Shown: piece after piece, positions 3,178 through 61,953 of the stretch
Position numbering within the stretch: position 1 is the first letter of the stretch
Layout of the letters: the number at the start of each line of letters is the position of its first letter
Source of the DNA: Candidatus Parcubacteria bacterium
GTDB taxonomy: Bacteria > Patescibacteriota > Minisyncoccia > UBA6257 > HR35
NCBI GenBank assembly: GCA_025999335.1
Contig: AP024681.1
Location: 395,547-459,546 of the forward strand
Reading direction: 5' to 3'
Length of the DNA: 64,000 nucleotides
The notes under the pieces: generated by a model
Database searches by the model: none
What the model was told of the DNA's origin: nothing
The model's input: only the letters and a program-made list of their open reading frames with translations
Program-made: the position numbers and the translations under genes

Positions 3178-4173
3178 TTACAACTTTTTTCTTTTTAATT
3201 TCTCCCAAAAATATATCAACCAATACCTTCCAGAAAATCTGTAATCAATTGTTGGAAAAAGTTTAATTAATTCACCGCCAAACCCCTTTTTAAATTGAGT
3301 TAAACCATACCAAGGATGACGAGAAGTTTCTTTTCGAGCTATTCCCCAAAAATTGTAAAATTTACAACCCCGTTTTTTTGCCTCTTGAATAATTTCCCAT
3401 TGAAGTTTATAATTTAGTGGTTCTTTAATTGGATAAGATGCTGAATGATGATAAAAAGCAAGCTTATGCGAAAAAATAATTAAAGCTACAGAATAATATT
3501 TATTTTCAACTTTACCTAAAAAAAACAGAGCTTTGTTTTCTTTGGCAAAAATTTCAAATTCTTTTTTAATAAATTCTTTTTGATAGGGAACAAAGTTTTT
3601 GCGTTTAGCTAAGTCTTCATAAATTGACCAAAAAGTTTCAAATTTTTCTAAATTATCGGTTTTTTCAATTTCTAAAAAAGGTTTTTTTAAGGAATCTAAA
3701 ACTGCTTTTCGATGGCGATCATTCATTTCTTTAAGCATTTCTTCGTCATTTTTAATTTCTTTTATCCAGAAATTTTCGGAGACAGCATAGGTTGGCGCTA
3801 AAATAAAACCAATTTTTTTAAAATCAATTTTTAAATTTTCAGGTTCCGCGAGATTGATTCTTAAAAAGTCATATTTTTTAAAATAATTATTTTCTTTTAA
3901 AAATTCTAAAATTTTACTTAATCCGTTTTCGAAATGCTCTTTTTTAATTACTGGTCCATGATGACAAACCAAACCTTTGCCTCTTTTTCCTTGATAACCA
4001 ATTAATTGACAAACGCCAATTAAATCATTTTCAAAAATTCCCAATCTTAAAATTTCTCTCCCTAAATTTTTTTCAACTTCGCCATACTCAAAATCTTGCA
4101 AAAAACTTAAATAATTATTATCATCTAAAAATTTATTCCATTGATTTTGATTTTCTAAAATTTTTATTTCCAT
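3178..4173 (-). CDS. FemAB/FemX-family aminoacyl-tRNA-dependent peptidyltransferase (peptidoglycan interpeptide-bridge formation family)
   Basis: 331 aa, two-lobed GNAT-like layout typical of FemAB, including the C-terminal ...KFYNFWGI...RHPWYGLTQFKKGFGG... motif region. Confidence 0.65.
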   Translation of the reverse strand: MEIKILENQNQWNKFLDDNNYLSFLQDFEYGEVEKNLGREILRLGIFENDLIGVCQLIGYQGKRGKGLVCHHGPVIKKEHFENGLSKILEFLKENNYFKKYDFLRINLAEPENLKIDFKKIGFILAPTYAVSENFWIKEIKNDEEMLKEMNDRHRKAVLDSLKKPFLEIEKTDNLEKFETFWSIYEDLAKRKNFVPYQKEFIKKEFEIFAKENKALFFLGKVENKYYSVALIIFSHKLAFYHHSASYPIKEPLNYKLQWEIIQEAKKRGCKFYNFWGIARKETSRHPWYGLTQFKKGFGGELIKLFPTIDYRFSGRYWLIYFWEKLKRKKL

Positions 4174-4462
4174 AGGATTTGAGGTTATTTTTTATTATTT
4201 TGAATTACTTTTGCCTAAATAAAAGTAAAAATGATTTTGTCAAGGTTTATGATTAACTTTTTGCTTATTATTGAAGCAAAAATAATTAACCGCAAACTTT
4301 TCGGCTGAATTTTTATAGAAATTATTATATCATTTAAAAATTTTGAATCCTAAAAAATTAAATGATTAAAAAACTCCTTTCATTTTTTATTTAAATTGAA
4401 TGCAATAAGTTTTGTAATTATAATTGTAATTATAATTAGTTGCATTATTTTAATTGATCCTC

Positions 4463-4491
4463 TTGACAAATTATAATTTTTATGCTATATT
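4463..4491 (+). promoter_or_regulatory. sigma70-like promoter driving a short GC-rich transcript
   Basis: TTGACA at 4463-4468, 17-nt spacer, TATATT at 4486-4491 (a second TATAAT at 4492-4497). Predicted transcription start near the GG at 4498-4499. Confidence 0.35.
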
Positions 4492-4497
4492 TATAAT

Positions 4498-4571
4498 GGC
4501 ACCCTCCCGTCCACCCCCATCCGCACCGCACCGCGGGGGATCTTGTTTTTCTACAAGATCCCCCATTTTTT
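4498..4571 (+). ncRNA. candidate small RNA of about 75 nt, with a C-rich unstructured 5' part and an intrinsic terminator
   Basis: Isolated GC-rich island ggcaccctcccgtccacccccatccgcaccgcaccgc in an AT-rich intergenic gap. Sits directly between a promoter and a perfect 11-bp terminator stem. No ORF. Not a tRNA fold. Confidence 0.3.
4535..4571 (+). terminator. rho-independent terminator, plus-strand orientation
   Basis: GGGGGATCTTG (4535-4545), loop tttttcta, CAAGATCCCCC (4554-4564), then ATTTTTT. The minus-strand side has no U-tract. Confidence 0.6.
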
Positions 4572-4640
4572 ATTTACGTTTATTTATAATCTCTGGATAA
4601 AAATAAATATACTTTAGTTAATTTTTGCTAGATATTTATA

Positions 4641-5921
4641 TTAGATATAGTTATATTTTTGTAATAAGTTTATTATTGTTTGGGCTTGTTGTTCGTTAAT
4701 ATTTGGATGTGTTGGTAAATTAAGAAGTTTGCGGCTAACATTTTCAGCCTTTGGACAAGTTCCTAATTTATAAGCAAAATTTTCTATATTAGAACAAGGC
4801 GCTAAAACGCATCTATACCAATCGCCAAGATAGATATTTTGTTTTTTAAATTTTTCTAAAACTTTATCAGGATTTTGAGAGAAAATAGGAAATCTTAAGA
4901 AAATAGGTTCGGAATCATTATTGATAGTAAAATTTTTTAAACCTGCGGCTATATAAATTTGAGCAATTTTTTTTCGTTGCTCATTAAATCTTTCTAATTT
5001 GTTTAATTGGTTTACTAATAAAGGAAATAGAATTTTAGGGAATTTAGCAAGATAGTTCTTTGGTTGTTTGCCTTGTTTTTCAAGAGAGGAAACCATTTCT
5101 AAAGTAAAATTTTTAGTTCTTAAAAATTTTAAGTAGATTTTCATTAGGAAGTTGTAATTTTCTTTTGCTTTATAAAGTATTTTGCCGGTGAATAAAGTTT
5201 TTTTAATTTCTTTAGAATCTAAATCCGGCAGTTCTTGGTATTTTTGTCGAATTTTTTCATTGAAGTTTTTATTTCTAACAATTAAAGCACCACCAGTGAT
5301 AGCAGAGATAACTTTATTGCGGTTAAAGCTTAATAGTACAAAATCGCCAAAATTTCCTAAATAGACGCCTTTATATTTTGCACCTAAAGAATGAGTTAAA
5401 TTTTCAATGATTAAAAGATTGTTTTTTTTAGCAATATTTAGAATTTCTTCAATTTTAGCTGGGATACCGAAAGTATTTTGAATAATTATCGCTTTTGTTG
5501 TTTCATTAATTTTGTTTTTTAAATCATCGATATTTAAATTAAAACTTTCATCAATGTCAATATAAAGAGGCTGGAAACCAGCAAATTTTATAGCATTAGG
5601 GACAACTAAACAGGAAAAAGCTTGGGTTAATATATGCGGATCGCGGCGAATATTACTTGCGTTTATTTGCGTTTTTAAAACGTTCGTGTTTATTCGCGTA
5701 TCTATATTTTCCAATAAAAAACTTAAAGCACTTCTAGCTGAATTAAAAAAATAAATTTCTGTATTAGGAAAATAAGTAAATAAAAATTTTTTTGCTTTTT
5801 CTTCTAAGTTTTCAAAATCAAAAGAATAATTTTTTAATAATTTATCTATAATTTCAAAATCATCATATTCAAAATTTGGAACTAAATCAATGTTAATTGG
5901 TTTTTTCATTTGTTTAATCAT
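4641..5921 (-). CDS. DegT/DnrJ/EryC1/StrS-family PLP-dependent aminotransferase (amino-sugar aminotransferase type)
   Basis: 426 aa. ...NSARSALSFLL..., ...AIIIQNTFGIPA... and the PLP-lysine region ...GDFVLLSFNRNKVISAITGGALI... match the DegT family pattern SFH..K. Confidence 0.65.
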   Translation of the reverse strand: MIKQMKKPINIDLVPNFEYDDFEIIDKLLKNYSFDFENLEEKAKKFLFTYFPNTEIYFFNSARSALSFLLENIDTRINTNVLKTQINASNIRRDPHILTQAFSCLVVPNAIKFAGFQPLYIDIDESFNLNIDDLKNKINETTKAIIIQNTFGIPAKIEEILNIAKKNNLLIIENLTHSLGAKYKGVYLGNFGDFVLLSFNRNKVISAITGGALIVRNKNFNEKIRQKYQELPDLDSKEIKKTLFTGKILYKAKENYNFLMKIYLKFLRTKNFTLEMVSSLEKQGKQPKNYLAKFPKILFPLLVNQLNKLERFNEQRKKIAQIYIAAGLKNFTINNDSEPIFLRFPIFSQNPDKVLEKFKKQNIYLGDWYRCVLAPCSNIENFAYKLGTCPKAENVSRKLLNLPTHPNINEQQAQTIINLLQKYNYI

Positions 5922-8561: not shown

Positions 8562-10637
8562 ATGACCTTAGATGATCTTAACAAACCTTTAGAAGAATTA
8601 CATCTTAAAAAAGATTTGCTAGATAAATTAAAGCTAAAGAAAATTACTACAATTAAAGATATTTTATATTATTTTCCTTATAAATATTTAGACTTAACGA
8701 AGATAAAAAAAATCAAAGATTTAACAATTAGCGATGAAAAAATAACTTTGGTTGGCAAGCTTAGCAATATAAAAGCTTTTTCAGCGCGTTATAGAAAATT
8801 GTTTATTATTTCAGCAACCTTATCCGATGCGACTGGAGCAATTAAAGTAATGTGGTATAATCAGCCATTTCTTCTAAAACATTTTAAAAATCAACCTTAT
8901 GTATTGGTTTACGGTAAGTTAAGTTTTTCTAAAAATATGTTAATTATGCAGTCTCCTAAAGTAAAGATATTAGGCAAAGAAAAATTTTTTAGACTAAATA
9001 TTATTCCTATCTATTCAGAGTTTAAAGGCGTAAAGAGTCGCACTATTGCTAATATTATTGATAAAATTTTTCAACAATTTGCTATTGATAAAATTGATGA
9101 AACCTTGCCGCCGCTAATTTTAAAAAAACTTGCTTATCCAACTTTAGGTGAAGCTTTATTAACCTTGCATAAACCAAAAACTTTAAAAAATATACATCAA
9201 GCGCAACAGCGTATTTCTTTTGAAGAGATTTTGTATTTAGAATTAGCGTCTTTATTAAATAAATCAACGCTGAGCAAAAATAAAGCTCCTCTTATTAACA
9301 AAGATGAACAATTAATTCAATCTTTTTTGCAGTCATTAAATTTATCGTTAACTCAAGGGCAAAAAAAGGTTCTCGATGATATTTTTCAAGATTTACAAAA
9401 AGGAAAGCCAATGAATCGCTTGCTACAAGGAGAAACTGGTTCAGGTAAAACTTTAATTGCGGAAATTGTTAGTTTAAATATAGTTACTTACGGTTATCAA
9501 GTAATTTTAATGGCGCCAACGGAAATTTTAGCACAGCAACATTTTGAAAGACTTAAAAACGATTTTAAAAATTTTAATTTTGGTTTAGGTTTGATTACTT
9601 CAGGGCAGATTTTTTATGCTGTTAAAGGCTTTAAGGCAAAGAAGAAAATGTTAGATATTAATCGTTATTTAAGTCTCGGTGATATTAAAATTTTGGTTGG
9701 CACACATTCTTTGATTAAAAATAATTTATCTTTTAATAACATAGGTTTAATAATAATCGATGAACAACAGCGTTTTGGCGTTGAACAACGTCAGGAACTT
9801 TTAAGCAAAAGCAAACAAAATTTTGTGCCTCATTTTTTATCAATGACAGCAACTCCAATTCCGCGCACTTTGGCTTTAGCTTTATACAGCGATTTGGATT
9901 TGTCTTATCTTAAAGAGAAACCGCCGGGATTTAAACAAATCAAAACTTACATTGTTTATCCGAATAAAAAAAATATTATGTGGAATTTTATTAACAAAGA
10001 ATTAAACGAAAATCATCAGATATTTATAGTTTGTCCTCGCGTTGAAGATAAAGAAGATGAAATTGCTTCGGTAAAAAAAGAATATGAAAATATAAGAAAT
10101 CTTTTTCCTAAAGCCAATGTAGCTTTTTTGCACGGTAAGATGAAACCCGAAGAAAAAGAAAAAATTTTGAAATTAATGCAAGCTAACAAGATTAATATTT
10201 TAGTAAGTTCGTCGGTTATAGAGGTTGGTATTGATTTGCCTTTGGTAACAGTTATTGTTATTCTTTCGCCAGAGAGATTTGGTTTAGCGCAACTGTATCA
10301 ATTAAGAGGTCGTGTTGGCAGAAGCATTCATCAAGGTTATTGTTTTTTAGCTGTTAGTAATTTATCTGATAAATCGAAAAAACGATTGCAATTATTTTTG
10401 CGATCTGATTCAGCTTTAAAACTTGCTGAATATGATTTACGTTTAAGGGGTCCGGGAGAACTTTTAGGTATTAAACAGTCAGGTTTATCTGATCTTGCAA
10501 TGCGCGCTCTTGCCGATATTAATTTGCTTAAAAAAGCTAAAATTGTTGCTCGTTATATTTTTAATCATCAAGCTAATAAAAATTTTGCTTATTTATTAAA
10601 AAAGGCATCATCTTATTTGGATTTTTTAAAAGCTTGA
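8562..10637 (+). CDS. recG: ATP-dependent DNA helicase RecG
   Basis: 691 aa. N-terminal wedge/OB region, Walker A LQGETGSGKT, DEQQRFGV (RecG DEQHRFGV), and helicase C-terminal motifs. Confidence 0.85.
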   Translation: MTLDDLNKPLEELHLKKDLLDKLKLKKITTIKDILYYFPYKYLDLTKIKKIKDLTISDEKITLVGKLSNIKAFSARYRKLFIISATLSDATGAIKVMWYNQPFLLKHFKNQPYVLVYGKLSFSKNMLIMQSPKVKILGKEKFFRLNIIPIYSEFKGVKSRTIANIIDKIFQQFAIDKIDETLPPLILKKLAYPTLGEALLTLHKPKTLKNIHQAQQRISFEEILYLELASLLNKSTLSKNKAPLINKDEQLIQSFLQSLNLSLTQGQKKVLDDIFQDLQKGKPMNRLLQGETGSGKTLIAEIVSLNIVTYGYQVILMAPTEILAQQHFERLKNDFKNFNFGLGLITSGQIFYAVKGFKAKKKMLDINRYLSLGDIKILVGTHSLIKNNLSFNNIGLIIIDEQQRFGVEQRQELLSKSKQNFVPHFLSMTATPIPRTLALALYSDLDLSYLKEKPPGFKQIKTYIVYPNKKNIMWNFINKELNENHQIFIVCPRVEDKEDEIASVKKEYENIRNLFPKANVAFLHGKMKPEEKEKILKLMQANKINILVSSSVIEVGIDLPLVTVIVILSPERFGLAQLYQLRGRVGRSIHQGYCFLAVSNLSDKSKKRLQLFLRSDSALKLAEYDLRLRGPGELLGIKQSGLSDLAMRALADINLLKKAKIVARYIFNHQANKNFAYLLKKASSYLDFLKA

Positions 10638-49607: not shown

Positions 49608-50561
49608 GTTTACAATTTCAGCGTTTTTGAATATTTTTTGTTTTGTTGTTTTTGTTGGTTGTTAATGATTTAGGTGTCTTGGTAAAAGTAATAAATTATA
49701 ATGAAATCAAGTAATAAATTAACAATTGTTGAAAATATAAAGAAATATCGGTTAAAAGTTAGGAGTTTCTCAAAACAAGCTTTCAAAATTAACTGACATT
49801 ACTTATGACGCGATTATCAAGATTGAATTAGAATAAATAAAAATCTTAAAACCAAAAGTTAAATTTTTAATTTAATCAATATTATTGTTAAATTATTCAA
49901 TTTGACTTGAATAGATAATTATGACTGAAGATTTTTTGAAAAATTTAATCAAAGAATATAAACACTTGACTATTTATGTTTATCCCAATCATGGTTATCT
50001 TGGAGGTTGCGTTATGCGGTGCAAACGCGAAGATGCTTTTGATTTGATAAATACAACGCCGGAGGAATAAATAGGGCTACTTTTTGTTTTGTGATATTTG
50101 AAAGAGGCAATAAAAAAAGCTTTTTAACAAGATTGGCTTAATTATTAGTTTTTGATAAATGAAACAAGAGACGTTTGCGCTGTCATTTTGTTACTCGCTA
50201 CGTAAAACTAAAAACATTTATTAATATTGTATTTGAAGATAAACTCTATGGACATAATCATAAAAAAGGTAATAGTTTCGTAACATCAGAAGAATTACTA
50301 AAGGCGATTCGAGAAGAATTAAAAAAGGCATTAAAATAATTTTAAAAACGGCTCATTCGTGAAGCGGGTATGGCGAGTAGGGAAAAATTTACCAATTGTT
50401 TGCTTGCGAGTTGATTACGATATTAGAGTAAATTCGTTGTTTGATAAGTTTTAAAGCGTGTTTGAGTTAAAACAACTTGGAAAAATTATGTTATTTGATC
50501 ATAATTATATAATAATGAGTATAATAATGAGTATATTAAACAAAAAATTATTATAAAACAT

Positions 50562-52514: not shown

Positions 52515-52543
52515 TTGACAAAAAAATAATTATTTGTTATACT
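52515..52543 (+). promoter_or_regulatory. sigma70-like promoter upstream of rpoB
   Basis: TTGACA at 52515-52520, 17-nt spacer, TATACT at 52538-52543. Confidence 0.35.
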
Positions 52544-52616
52544 TTTATTATATTTAAATGTTAATTTAGCCCTTTTTTCTTTTTTTATAAAGAAAGCCCT
52601 TTTCGGCTTTTATTTA

Positions 52617-55600
52617 ATGTTTGCGTCAAAAAACTTTTCCAAATTTAAGTATTTAGAAATTAATGATTTGTTAAAAGATATTAAGGAATCTTTTAATAAT
52701 TTTCTGTTTTTAAAATTTGAAAATATTATTAAAGAATATTTTCCTATTTATGATTATTCTGAAAAGGAATTGAGATTAGATTTTAAAGGTTTGGAGTTAG
52801 GTTCACCAAAAATAACTGAAGATGAAGCTAAATACTATGGCATAAATTTTGATATCCCTTTACGTTTTAATTTTGTTTTGCATAATCTTGTTACTGGCGA
52901 TGCTAAAGAGCAAAAGATATTTTTTGGCGACATTCCTGCAATGACTAAAAGCGGTACTTTTATTATTAATGGCATTGAAAGAATTATCGTTAATCAATTA
53001 TTAAGATCTCCGGGCATTTATTTCTCTTATCTTATGTATGGTGATGCTAAAAAATTTGGTGCTAAAGTTATGCCTCATCAAGGAGCGTGGCTTGAATTTC
53101 AAACTGAAGCAACCGATATTATTCAAGTAAGAATTGATCGTCATAAAAAAGTTCCGGTGACTATTTTATTAAAAGCTTTTGGCTTTGAAAGCAATGACGA
53201 GATTTTAAATTTTTTTGGTAATGATAATTTTATCGTTAATACTTTGAAAAAAGATAATACTTTAAATAGAGAAGAAGCTTTATTAGAAATTCATCGTAAA
53301 TTAAAACCTTTTGAACCTAATACCTACGACAACGCTCTTTTTTATTTTGAAAATACATTTTTAAATCCAGCTCGTTATAATCTTTCTCCTATAGGGAGAT
53401 ATCATGTTAATAGACGTTTGAACAATGATTCGCAGTCTCCTTGTTTAGAACGTCGCGATATTGAGTTAATTATTAAAGAAATTATTCGTTTAAACAATGA
53501 TCAAAATGCTGAAAGAGATGATATTGATGCTTTGTATAATCGAAGAGTGCGTGATGTTGCTGAATTGTTAGAAAATCAAACGCGAATTGGTTTATTAAGA
53601 TTAAAAAAAGATATTCAAGACAGAATGAGTGCTGTTGATAAATCTCAAGCTTTATTGCCTTCACAGGTTGTTTATCCAAGAAAATTTATTAATTCTATAA
53701 TTGAATTTTTTAATATCTCGCCATTGTCACAGATTTTAGATCAAGTTAATCCTTTGTCAAGCATAGAACATAAAAGAAAATTAACCGGTGGTGGTCCTGG
53801 CGGATTAACCAAAGAAAGAGCTACTTTAGAAGCAAGAGATGTTCATCCTTCTCATTATGGTAGAATATGTCCAATTCAAACTCCTGCTGAAGGACAAAGC
53901 GTTGGTATTAGTTTAAGTCGTGCTTTATATGCAAGAAGAAACGAGTACGGTTTTTTGGAAACTCCTTATTATAAAGTTGTTAATGGCAAAATTAGCAATG
54001 AAATTGTTTGGCTTACAGCTGATCAAGAAGCTAAAGAAATTATTGCCTCACGATTTGTTAATATAGACAACAAAGGAAATATTTTAGACGAAGAAGTTGA
54101 GGCAAGAGTATACGGAGAGCCAAGACTTGTTTCTAAAGATGAAGTTACCTTAATAGATGTTTCTCCTTTTCAAATCTTTTCATTAGCAACTTCTTTAATT
54201 CCTTTTGTTGAACATGATGATGCTAACAGAGCCCAGATGGGTTCTAAAATGCAAAATCAAGCAGTTACTTTGGTTAAGCCTGATATTCCTTTAGTATCTA
54301 CAGGTTTAGAAGAAAAAACAGCAAGAGAATCTGGATTAGTTATCATTGCTGAACACGACGGGGAAGTAGTTTATGTTGATGCTGATTGCATTATTTTAAA
54401 ATGCAAAACTAGCAAAGGTTATGAAAAGGTTGTTTATAATTTACGCAAGTTTCAAAGAACTTCAGCTTTTACTTGCTATAATCAAAAACCAATTGTTCGC
54501 TTAGGTCAAAAAGTGAAGAAAGGAGATGTTTTAACCGATGGTCCTGCAATTAAAAACGGCACTTTAGCATTAGGACAAAATGTGTTGATGGCATTTTTAC
54601 CGTGGCATGGTTATAATTATGAAGATGCTATTATTGTTTCGGAAAGATTGTTAAAAGACGATCTTTTTTCTTCTATTTATTTAGAAGAGTTTTCGGTTGA
54701 TGTTTTAGACACAAGATTAGGACCAGAAATTACAACTTATGATATTCCTGAAGTGCCTGAAAATAAATTAAGAAATTTAGATATTGATGGTTATATTCAA
54801 GTTGGTACTTATGTTAAACCGGGCGATATTCTTGTTGGTAAAATAACGCCAAAAAGAGAAGTAGAAATCACTCCTGAAGAAAAATTATTAAAAGCTATTT
54901 TTGGAGAAAAAGCGGAAGAGAAAAAAGATTCGTCTTTATATTTAGAACCTGGCAAAGAAGGAAGAGTGATTAAGGTTAAGGTTTTGAATCGTAGTAAGGG
55001 CGAAATTACTGAGCCAGGAGTTTTGAAAAGAGTTTTTGTTGAAATAGCTAAATTGCGCAAAATTCAAATCGGCGATAAATTAGCTAATCGACATGGTAAT
55101 AAGGGTGTTATTTCGGTGATTTTGAAAGAGGAAGATATGCCATTTTTGCCTGATGGTCGACGTTTAGATATAGTTCTTAATACTACAGGTATTATTTCAA
55201 GAATGAATATAGGACAGATTTTAGAAGCGCATTTAGGTTTAGCTGCCCATAAGTTACAATATAGAGCTATTGTTCCTCCTTTCTCTGGTTTTACGGCTGA
55301 TGAGGTAAAAGCAGAATTAAGGAAAGCAAACTTACCCGAAGATGGTAAAACAATTTTATACGATGGTTTAACTGGTGAACCTTTTAATCAAAGAGTTACT
55401 GTAGGTTATATGACTATTATGAAATTAGTACATATGGTTGAAGATAAAATTCATGCGCGTTCTATTGGTCCTTATTCTTTAATTACTCAACAACCTCTTG
55501 GTGGTAGAGCGCAATTTGGTGGGCAAAGATTAGGAGAAATGGAAATGTGGGCTTTAGCAGCTCATGGCGCTACAGAAATTTTACAAGAAATGCTTACTAT

Positions 55601-59721: not shown

Positions 59722-60962
59722 CTTATGATAGTATTATACCATTTATGATACGGCAAGGGAAATTTTGAGCATAATTGTTGTGTTGTTTTTTTGATTATTT
59801 TTGGATTTATTTTTTTAATAAGAAGTTTATAAATTAATTCAGCAATTATTTCCATTTCTTTTTCTTCCATACCTCTAGCAGTAACCGCTGGCGTTCCTAA
59901 TCTTATGCCTGAAGGATTAAAAGGCGAAATATCATTAGGCAAAGCATTTCTATTAGCTATGATGCCGCTTAATTCTAAAATTTTTTCTGCTTTTTTACCA
60001 TCAATTTTTAATGGCTTGAGATCAATAATCATTAAATGATTCTCGGTACCTCCGCTATATAATCTGAATCCTCTATTGATTAACGATAAAGACAATTGTT
60101 TAGCATTTTTAATTATTTGTTTTTGATAGTTAAGAAATTGTTTTGTTGTCGCTTTTTTAAAAGTATAAGCTATAGCGGCAATTGTTTGCATATGCGGACC
60201 GCCTTGTAAGCCAGGGAATACAGAACGATTAATTTGTTTTTCTAAATCTTTTTTCATAAATATTACTGCACCGCGTGGGCCTTGAAGAGTTTTATGAGTA
60301 GTGGTAGTAACAATATCAGCATAGTGGAATGGTGAAGGATGAAGGTTAGCAATGATTAAGCCGGCAATATGAGAAATATCAGCTAGATGATAAGCTTTGA
60401 TTTTTTTAGCAATTTTAGATATTTGCGAAAAATCAATAATGCGAGGATAGGCAGTTGTGCCGGAAATAATCAGTCGTGGTTTAAATTCATAAGCTAATTT
60501 TGCTATTTCGTTATAATCTATCTTTTCTGTTTGCAGGTTAAGACAATATTGTTTTGTTGTAAACAATTTGCCGCTGTGATTGGCTTGATGTCCGTGAGTT
60601 AAGTGACCACCGTGGAATAAGTTTAATCCCATTATTTTATCTCCTACGTTAAGCAACCCTAAATAAGCAGCTAAATTAGCAGGCGATCCTGAATATGGTT
60701 GGACATTTACTGACCATTGGCGTGAATCAAGTTTAAAAGCTCGCAGAGCTCTTTTTATGCTAAGCATTTCTATTTTATCCATCAAAGCAGTACCCGGATA
60801 GTATCTTTTTTGAGGATAGCCTTCGGAATATTTATTCATCAATGGCGAACCAACAATAAATAGAGTTTCTAAATCAGCATAATTTTCAGAAGGTATTAAA
60901 TTAATAGAATTTTGTTGCCTTTGTAATTCTTTTAAAATAATTCGCCAAAGTTGTTTATCCAT
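59712..60962 (-). CDS. glyA: serine hydroxymethyltransferase
   Basis: 416 aa. ...NLIPSENYADLETLFIVGSPLMNKYSEGYPQKRYY... and PLP-lysine region ...TTTTHKTLQGPRGA... The last three codons overlap the tRNA-Ala 5' end. Confidence 0.9.
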   Translation of the reverse strand: MDKQLWRIILKELQRQQNSINLIPSENYADLETLFIVGSPLMNKYSEGYPQKRYYPGTALMDKIEMLSIKRALRAFKLDSRQWSVNVQPYSGSPANLAAYLGLLNVGDKIMGLNLFHGGHLTHGHQANHSGKLFTTKQYCLNLQTEKIDYNEIAKLAYEFKPRLIISGTTAYPRIIDFSQISKIAKKIKAYHLADISHIAGLIIANLHPSPFHYADIVTTTTHKTLQGPRGAVIFMKKDLEKQINRSVFPGLQGGPHMQTIAAIAYTFKKATTKQFLNYQKQIIKNAKQLSLSLINRGFRLYSGGTENHLMIIDLKPLKIDGKKAEKILELSGIIANRNALPNDISPFNPSGIRLGTPAVTARGMEEKEMEIIAELIYKLLIKKINPKIIKKTTQQLCSKFPLPYHKWYNTIIRGL

Positions 60963-61953
60963 TTTGGTTTTTATTTTTTGTTAAATAACTATCTAAACTT
61001 AAATATCCTCCGCCAGTTACAAAGAGAATTGATAAAGCGCAAAATAAGGTTATGTGAGAATAAACTTCTTCTTGAAAATAAAAGAAAGAAAGTGTTAAGA
61101 TTACAAAAGTTACAGTTACGATAACTCTTGTATGCAATCCTAGAATAATTAATAAACCAGCAATCAATTCAATTAAACCAGCAACCAGGACCCATGTTTC
61201 TTTGTTTACAGGTATCAAAGCTGTCAAATTGTATTTTTCAACAACTAAACTAGCAACATAAGGATTAAGTATTTTTTCATATAAACCTAAAAAGATTAAA
61301 GCACCGCCTAAAGATATTCTTAAAATCAAAGGTAAAAATTTTTCTATGTTTATTTTTAAAGGCCATATTTTTATGTTCAGCAAATCTTCTAAGCCGGGAG
61401 TTGAGTTTTTTGATAATAATAAGACAATTAACATTCCCAAAATTTCCAAATTGCCAAGAGTATAAAAATTTTTGCTTAGAGCAATAAAATAAAGCACGAT
61501 AGACATAGCAGTCGCTATGAAAATAGGAAAACCAATTAATAAAGCAAAACCTAAAAGAATTTGAACAAATGAAAAACTATTTTCCATCGGTAAAGCAGGA
61601 CTTAGTAAGACATTATTTATGCCTGAACCAATGAGACTAATGCCAATGCTTAACCTTAACATCCAAGGGAATAAATTGCTATATTCTTTTTGTTTGTTAA
61701 GGATATTATTATAAATATTTTTAACAAAAGTTGTTCGTTTAAATCCTATGTATATTATTGCTATAATAATAATTACTGATATTGCAATAAGGATATTGTA
61801 AAAATTAAGAGCTGGCAAGAAAAAATTTATATCATAGCCGCTGTGTTTGCTAAAATTTTCTTGGTCAACAACATATTTTACATGGGCAGTGGTAATTACT
61901 ATGGGTATAATAATATAAAAAAACAGTGCTAATTTAAAAATTAAATTCTGCAT
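60955..61953 (-). CDS. polytopic membrane protein, possibly tandem DoxX-like
   Basis: 332 aa, about 8 hydrophobic helices. ...LRISLGGALIFLGLYEKILNP... resembles DoxX-family helices. Confidence 0.3.
   Translation of the reverse strand: MQNLIFKLALFFYIIIPIVITTAHVKYVVDQENFSKHSGYDINFFLPALNFYNILIAISVIIIIAIIYIGFKRTTFVKNIYNNILNKQKEYSNLFPWMLRLSIGISLIGSGINNVLLSPALPMENSFSFVQILLGFALLIGFPIFIATAMSIVLYFIALSKNFYTLGNLEILGMLIVLLLSKNSTPGLEDLLNIKIWPLKINIEKFLPLILRISLGGALIFLGLYEKILNPYVASLVVEKYNLTALIPVNKETWVLVAGLIELIAGLLIILGLHTRVIVTVTFVILTLSFFYFQEEVYSHITLFCALSILFVTGGGYLSLDSYLTKNKNQNG

Follow-up and report, generated by a model that had tools for sequence, protein, structure and literature searches.

GadY of Escherichia coli is a cis-antisense small RNA (sRNA) that faces the gadX-gadW intercistronic region. 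The element considered here is a putative RNA gene at positions 4463-4575, on the plus strand, of a 64-kb window (the whole stretch of DNA analysed, 64,000 nucleotides of contig AP024681.1) from a Candidatus Parcubacteria genome. Located between a FemAB and a DegT gene, it resembles GadY in having its own promoter and terminator, in lying opposite the spacer of two co-oriented genes without coding overlap, and in the full complementarity that it would have to any messenger RNA (mRNA) reading through the spacer. It has no relationship to GadY by sequence or in Rfam, and GadY is not C-rich. A sequence-only reading of the window had singled out the unit as a self-contained gene for a C-rich RNA. 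That it is a genuine transcribed RNA gene is judged likely from the comparisons below, which point to a probable lineage-specific non-coding RNA gene of ~75 nt.

RsaE/RoxS, the Rsa RNAs of Staphylococcus aureus (PMC2790875) and LhrC of Listeria are sRNAs of Firmicutes with C-rich UCCC motifs, LhrC being a multicopy RNA that responds to cell-envelope stress (PMC4132741). All are, like the window unit, short RNAs with unpaired C-rich motifs and an intrinsic terminator, and among the comparable units of relatives there are some in tandem multicopy and some with C-rich terminator loops. The envelope stress response of LhrC has a parallel in the position of the window unit among cell-wall genes. 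RsaE/RoxS and LhrC differ from the unit in binding G-rich Shine-Dalgarno (SD) regions, whereas this genome is almost without SD sequences and no target came up in the window; moreover no covariance model matches the unit, and its arm is not conserved even in its ortholog. The 6C sRNA of Actinobacteria shares with it C-rich unpaired segments for pairing and the lack of a known chaperone, but in 6C, which is conserved over a wide range, the C-runs lie in a pair of hairpin loops (PMC6486639), whereas the window unit has a linear 5' arm, is lineage-specific and has no Rfam match. Full-text literature searches turned up no account of a regulatory sRNA from Parcubacteria or from other members of the Candidate Phyla Radiation.

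Anatomy of the unit

The unit has a three-part anatomy (promoter, C-rich arm, and hairpin with T-run) that spans 4463-4575 on the plus strand, and its features are as follows.

4463-4468, plus strand: -35 hexamer TTGACA, of which TGACA, together with the entire spacer (C4485 apart, see below), is unchanged in the ortholog at locus L045
4468-4479, plus strand: perfect 12-nt palindrome AAATTATAATTT within the promoter spacer, conserved in L045
4483-4491, plus strand: extended -10 element, TG at 4483-4484, then c, then TATATT at 4486-4491, with a 17-nt spacer after TTGACA
4498-4534, plus strand: predicted 5' arm of the RNA, 37 nt, mostly unpaired, containing CCCUCCC
4521-4534, plus strand: CCGCA pentamer repeated 2.8 times, not present in L045
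4535-4564, plus strand: terminator hairpin with a 12-bp perfect stem and a 6-nt loop
4566-4575, plus strand: T-run TTTTTTATTT (T6 run), at which an RNA of 74-78 nt is predicted to end

The promoter TTGACA-17-TATATT, the GC-rich island and the hairpin with its U-tract thus all lie where the sequence-only reading had placed them. The promoter is of the sigma-70 type, TG-extended, and matches the consensus at 11 of 12 positions. It is one of 10 sites in the 64 kb that score at least 11/12, against 2.8 +/- 1.4 in Markov-shuffled sequence; the TG extension is found in only two of these ten, and several of the other sites directly precede genes. Transcription is inferred to start at G4498, 7 nt past the -10 element. 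The palindrome in the spacer could serve as an operator, but is not statistically unusual in AT-rich DNA (about 0.3 such palindromes are expected per 467 bp by our own estimate).

The hairpin is formed by GGGGGATCTTGT (4535-4546) and ACAAGATCCCCC (4553-4564), a stem of 12 bp and not the 11 bp first proposed, with seven G-C pairs, and is followed by ATTTTTTATTT. It is the strongest combination of hairpin and T-run in the window (-22.2 kcal/mol, with the runner-up at -17.8 kcal/mol) and is predicted to be still folded at 70 °C. The predicted fold of the RNA as a whole, an unpaired arm plus this hairpin, has a z-score of -4.6.

The arm is composed of A5 C23 G6 T3 (78% GC) in a window with a GC content of 30%. 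It holds the most GC-rich 36-nt stretch of the 64 kb (0.81), which exceeds even the three tRNAs of the window (0.67-0.69) and bears out the description of the region as a GC-rich island, and this island is single-copy in the window. Two details of that description need correction. The arm had been said to have almost no G, but G makes up 6 of 37 positions (16%), about the genome average (C 13%, G 17%), and it is the excess of C that stands out. The proposed (CACCGC)2 repeat is a repeat with a 5-nt period, CCGCA, in which the two copies of CACCGC overlap by one C; it is probably a slippage expansion specific to the window sequence. The single-stranded character ascribed to the arm holds for most of it, though not for the whole, with a predicted mean unpaired probability of 0.74 at 37 °C and 0.95 at 70 °C.

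Conservation in the closest ortholog

No close relative was found among species-representative genomes, the best reaching 36%. Relatives at 55-82% protein identity were found by protein searches of metagenome assemblies, and their loci were compared. The closest DegT relative (75% amino acid identity) is that of locus L045, where an orthologous unit lies on the corresponding strand, and this locus is the only match when the whole gap is compared by blastn with all fetched loci.

Conservation between the two is uneven along the unit. The 34 nt from the -35 element to the start site are identical at 33 positions, the sole difference being C4485, which is T in L045, while DegT DNA is 79% identical, the non-coding 3' flank 64% and the arm 32%. 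By our estimate the binomial probability of a promoter so conserved is ~0.003 at the rate of DegT DNA and ~5e-6 at the rate of the 3' flank. The stem core GGGATCTTG/CAAGATCCC is identical in L045, and the pair G4536-C4563 is replaced there by A-T, which constitutes one compensatory pair. The arm of L045, AGUAAUCUAAAAAUCCUAACAAAUCCCCAUUCCC, has ~35% GC and a single G and is fully unpaired; its local alignment score with the window arm is no better than that of shuffles. The two arms show many A/C exchanges, and a stretch CCCCAUYC is common to both if the CCGCA repeat is taken as an insertion, in an alignment made post hoc.

Since promoter and stem are kept while the arm diverges, this comparison indicates that promoter and terminator are under selection and that any constraint on the arm goes no further than composition (G-poor and unstructured), apart possibly from CCCCAUYC. 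The claim of a self-contained transcription unit is upheld by the promoter, by the stem with its compensatory pair, by the failure of a coding interpretation and by a T-run on the plus side only. The C-rich segment, which had been proposed as the functional core, fares poorly, as its sequence is not conserved and its 78% GC is not retained in L045.

The DegT-FemAB slot in other relatives

Seven loci (L012, L022, L025, L046, L047, L048/L049 and L050) have DegT directly adjoining or overlapping FemAB, without a gap and without a GC island; among them is the closest FemAB relative (82%). From this arrangement in seven relatives it follows that the DegT-FemAB operon is, as far as gene order tells, the ancestral state, and that the unit is an insertion made later. 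The sequence-only reading had held that an island that was absent or not conserved in related genomes would reduce the unit to a bidirectional terminator. The island is indeed absent in the seven loci and not conserved in L045, yet the bidirectional terminator is ruled out as well, because the T-run is on the plus side only.

Units lie just past the DegT stop codon in 12 more distinct loci (L011, L013, L014, L016, L017/L018, L019, L023, L024, L026, L030, L059 and L061/L062). They number one or two per locus, possibly three in L019, and follow a layout of promoter, GC-rich body and terminator. By inspection, every unit in the slot is antisense to DegT, with at least 19 units in 14 distinct loci. 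No local alignment of the relatives' unit bodies with the window arm was better than shuffles, and an Rfam search of the relatives' loci (E <= 1) found nothing in the slot. C exceeds G in all 16 units compared, and CCUCC is present in 13 of the 16 against 3.7 expected from composition (P < 0.0005). In this test the units are partly dependent on one another, and CCUCC was chosen once the data had been seen, though it is the classical anti-SD core.

Some of these loci encode an RNA, here termed class A, at the following positions.

L011, 3244-3282 and 3068-3106, minus strand of the locus: class A RNA
L013, 4003-4042, minus strand of the locus: class A RNA
L014, 4271-4311, minus strand of the locus: class A RNA
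L023, 3875-3910, minus strand of the locus: class A RNA
L024, 3839-3875, minus strand of the locus: class A RNA
L061, 1262-1304 (identical to L062, 17-59), minus strand of the locus: class A RNA

In class A RNA a conserved 4x4 internal loop, UGCU/CUAU, interrupts a hairpin whose stems covary fully; in its alignment 97% of cells are paired and nine of 12 pairs show double changes. A covariance model built on six members (R1) detected a further, AT-rich member that had been kept out of its construction (E = 5e-4) and in which a formerly invariant pair shows a compensatory change. The class has no Rfam match and comes with no earlier description. It resembles the window unit in slot, strand, promoter style and intrinsic terminator, and in a C/U-rich 5' arm, which in class A bears CCUCC, but differs in its covarying hairpin with the UGCU/CUAU loop, which the window unit lacks. 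In the window, cmsearch with R1 and filters off gave a best score of 10 bits (E = 5.8) at a place away from the unit, and a regular expression search was negative.

In L059, which is counted among the class A loci, the UGCU/CUAU loop is found circularly permuted at ~2285-2320 on the minus strand, as GGGC-CUAU-C[GAUCC..GGAUC]G-UGCU-GCCC. This permuted topology suggests that the internal loop itself may be a functional module, perhaps a protein-binding site.

Terminator loops that display (A)CCUCCUUUC occur on the minus strands of L013 (~3955-3995), L014 (~4490-4530) and L059 (2231-2265), on stems that covary between loci. The loop sequence (A)CCUCCUUUC is identical to the 3' tail of bacterial 16S ribosomal RNA.

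The slot also holds protein-coding material. In L017, L018 and L030 it contains an acyl-carrier-protein-like open reading frame (ORF) of ~55% GC with a strong GGAGG site, in genomes of ~26% GC; this ORF looks horizontally acquired, and the slot may therefore be an integration hot spot. In L023 and L024 conserved hydrophobic ORFs of 26-27 amino acids, MEKIVILFLISLILERAVFWALSKEK and MKVLMILFLTGFILERACFWAFSINNE, lie beside the class A RNA bearing CCUCC, each with a strong SD sequence, its own promoter and its own terminator, in a layout like that of type I toxin-antitoxin systems. Pairing between units and adjacent SD-led ORFs in the relatives was not significant in a crude duplex test (P 0.03-0.6).

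Proposed cis-antisense control of DegT-FemAB read-through

The spacer that holds the unit comprises 467 bp (4174-4640) between the minus-strand genes FemAB (3178-4173) and DegT (4641-5921), within a conserved cluster of alpha/beta-hydrolase, Mur ligase, DegT and FemAB. A promoter and terminator scan of the gap found no minus-strand promoter scoring at least 9/12 and no minus-strand terminator. As there is neither a terminator nor a convincing promoter on that strand, FemAB is probably expressed by read-through from DegT.

The role that we put forward, tentatively and as the best placed of the candidates, is cis-antisense or convergent-transcription control of this read-through. The unit would sit antisense inside the junction of a formerly contiguous DegT-FemAB operon, and its strong promoter would fire head-on against transcription of the operon. 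The RNA would pair with the intercistronic spacer of the minus-strand read-through transcript, and the outcome would be an uncoupled or lowered expression of FemAB, a 3' end set for the DegT mRNA, or both, much as GadY acts on gadX-gadW. A cis mechanism is favoured because the read-through transcript is the only partner whose complementarity the sequence guarantees. It would also account for a promoter and terminator that are kept around a drifting body, since transcription and automatic complementarity would matter and not a specific seed. The analysis shows the anatomy of the unit, the selective conservation of its promoter and terminator, the lack of a conserved ORF and the older operon layout; transcription of the unit, the occurrence of read-through and a regulatory effect of the pairing are inferred. 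The earlier description of the unit as antisense to the flanking cell-wall genes is right as to orientation; the unit overlaps neither coding region, however, and the description therefore holds only given read-through from DegT to FemAB.

Several observations weigh against cis control. It leaves the C excess of the arm unexplained, as it does the CCUCC enrichment in the relatives' units, the tandem units and the conserved structured module. The slot in L016, L019 and L030 lies between convergent genes, with no downstream FemAB. FemAB could still be driven from a perfect minus-strand TTGACA (4248-4243), albeit one with a poor -10 element, and the conservation pattern comes from one ortholog pair (n = 2). 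The uniform antisense orientation of the units fits both cis and trans action, since a terminator facing the same way as the genes would have a polar effect on FemAB. Ranked by probability, cis control is followed by trans action, then by a remnant without function, a protein decoy, a plain terminator and, last, a micro-ORF.

Alternative explanations

The second-ranked possibility, not far behind cis control, is a trans-acting base-pairing sRNA, whose unpaired C-rich arm (CCCUCCC, CCCCCAUCC) would pair with G-rich mRNA sites in other parts of the genome (at least 680 kb), in the manner of RsaE/RoxS, LhrC and 6C. The architecture of single-stranded arm and terminator is what such an RNA would have; the L045 arm is also G-poor and unpaired, with CCCCAUYC possibly in common; and the relatives add the C excess and CCUCC of their units and, in some, CCUCCUUUC displayed in terminator loops. 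The antisense orientation would likewise be expected wherever a gene that carries a terminator has to avoid polar effects on FemAB. Against trans action, the arm is the least conserved part of the unit, and the target searches, which covered the 64-kb window (~10% of the genome), found no partner for it. The sequence-only reading had suggested a search for complementary G-rich sites near the ribosome-binding sites of neighbouring mRNAs. None was found at 58 translation start regions, which pair with the arm worse than intragenic controls (mean -6.4 against -10.2 kcal/mol), in a genome essentially without SD sites. A duplex scan of both window strands gave no mRNA partner, the best non-self matches being the GC-rich tRNA genes, and the complement of the shared core, GGRATGGGG, had four matches in the window against 5.6 expected.

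The translation signals of the window bear on the same point. An SD core precedes only two of the 58 ORF starts, against 4.5 +/- 1.9 at control ATGs, which speaks against a trans-acting RNA aimed at such sites. A -10 box lies 4-10 nt before the start codon in 11 of the 58 genes, against 4.7 +/- 2.0 in controls; examples are the genes starting at 8562 and 33886 and that at 60955-61953 (minus-strand start at 61953). This excess just before start codons points to leaderless mRNAs in this genome.

That the unit has no function at the RNA level is unlikely. It would then be the remnant of DNA inserted at a recombination-prone DegT-FemAB junction, with a foreign GC-rich scrap flanked by a promoter and a terminator that were both captured, or else a degenerating version of the relatives' RNA genes. 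The slot is indeed highly variable, being empty in seven loci and filled elsewhere with unrelated GC-rich content, including the acyl-carrier-protein-like ORF of L017, L018 and L030; the arm is not conserved, and a relic of a second unit possibly lies at 4373-4393. However, conservation is higher in the promoter than in the coding DNA beside it, the stem shows a compensatory change, and a tract of 78% GC is maintained in a 30% GC genome, all of which argues for ongoing selection.

A decoy or sponge RNA is improbable. In this case the C/A-rich strand, poor in G and U, would titrate a single-strand RNA-binding protein, such as Rho (through a rut-like tract with C > G) or a protein with a KH or cold-shock domain. 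The arms of the window and L045 are alike in composition (low G, unpaired, A/C exchanges) and not in sequence, which suits a protein that reads composition better than it suits a seed, but this argument concerns two sequences. No candidate protein came to light, nothing in the window links the unit to one, and a 37-nt arm is short for a rut site.

It is very improbable that the hairpin is simply a plain, possibly bidirectional, terminator of DegT and the rest coincidental. The hairpin follows the DegT stop codon at a distance of 77 nt and, being palindromic, would form in the DegT transcript too. Its upstream side is CACCGCACCGC (CACCGC base), and the minus strand reads on into GCGGUGCGG without a U-run; the minus-strand side lacks a U-run in L045 as well, and a T-run on the plus side only rejects a bidirectional terminator. 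Terminator-like sites, all of them weak, are no commoner in this genome than in shuffles (7 against 8.5 in a 20-kb sample), and a plain terminator leaves unexplained both the 97% conserved convergent promoter and the absence of the unit where DegT and FemAB abut.

The least probable of all is a leaderless micro-ORF with its ATG at 4496, giving MAPSRPPPSAPHRGG..., or a small minus-strand ORF: the ATG lies 5 nt past the -10 element, leaderless starts are common here and mechanical ORFs exist on both strands, but the L045 ortholog rules out the peptide with ATA for ATG and a TAA three codons on, the message would end at the terminator, short of its stop codon, and on the minus strand the ORFs of the window and of L045 differ in frame with respect to the conserved hairpin and have no sequence in common (our translation). 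The gap had been called free of ORFs; this does not hold for a mechanical ORF of 48 amino acids with a TTG start (4454-4600) that crosses the unit, but that ORF is closed by a stop codon in the ortholog.

Other known classes of element were also considered and rejected. A repeat or mobile element is not supported, as the unit body is unique in the window and phage and plasmid searches gave only chance matches (E >= 2); a search for the stem in viral contigs gave eight matches, all of them unrelated palindromes. A type I toxin-antitoxin system was set aside because the gap contains no small ORF led by an SD sequence. The TIGR-Tas system consists of a tandem repeat array with a neighbouring Tas gene (PMC12045711), whereas the window unit is single-copy, has FemAB, DegT and Mur ligase as neighbours and no Tas gene. 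For the minus-strand RNA of the window a G-quadruplex is predicted, but its G-runs are not conserved in L045. Finally, a cmscan of the whole window against the 4227 families of Rfam 15 found only the three tRNAs at gathering score. At E <= 10 the locus gave three below-threshold, unrelated matches only (P31, DdR18 and SraG), of which P31 matches the hairpin on the opposite strand with 26.4 bits (E = 0.0064) against a gathering score of 40.

A possible clade-specific system

Taken alone, the element looks like an ordinary candidate for an orphan sRNA. If transcribed, it would be a compact candidate with an ortholog, located in a peptidoglycan-modification cluster (Mur ligase, DegT, FemAB) of an uncultivated Parcubacterium. 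The more unusual material surrounds it: a variable slot for RNA genes, a covarying motif outside Rfam in the relatives, and a genome that is SD-less and partly leaderless.

These surroundings allow a broader and highly speculative proposal, to which we give only a slim chance. The unit would be a minimal member of a fast-evolving clade-specific system, in which small RNA genes are repeatedly recruited into a fixed slot after DegT in SD-less thermophilic Parcubacteria. The RNAs would display mimics of the anti-SD tail of 16S ribosomal RNA (CCUCC, up to ACCUCCUUUC), some together with a conserved protein-binding internal loop, and would silence the rare messages that bear an SD sequence. If this were true, the silenced messages may be horizontally acquired or toxic, for example the SD-led slot ORFs of the relatives, and the system would amount to an RNA-based discrimination of foreign translation signals. 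As to the thermophilic setting, the source metagenome-assembled genome is KatS3mg097, and we take the KatS3mg genomes to be of Japanese hot spring origin; the very GC-rich tRNAs of the window fit a thermophile source.

Other features of the gap and the window

Two further features lie upstream of the unit in the same gap.

4373-4393, plus strand: CTCCTTTCATTTTTTATTTA, containing a 13-nt exact direct repeat, CATTTTTTATTTA, shared with 4564-4576; this upstream copy is preceded by CTCCTTT
4396-4424, plus strand: weaker promoter-like site TTGAAT-17-TATAAT (10/12); the L045 contig ends at the -35 element, before this site

The first may, speculatively, be what is left of the 3' end of another unit in tandem, of the kind carried by relatives. 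The second could give rise to a longer isoform sharing the same terminator.

Elsewhere in the window, within 52515-52616, a strong TG-extended promoter TTGACA-17-TATACT (11/12) is followed by a hairpin at 52592-52611 that ends 5 nt before a gene for 1071 amino acids at 52617, and this element may be a leader or attenuator. Some 950 bp after the tRNA-Ser gene (49608-50561) contain no ORF of at least 80 amino acids and have no Rfam match. A perfect palindrome, CCTCCGGAGG, lies at ~230-251, directly before the ATG of the ORF at 252-764, which by synteny with L048 probably encodes ribosomal protein L10 and whose start has one of the only two SD-like cores among the 58 starts of the window.

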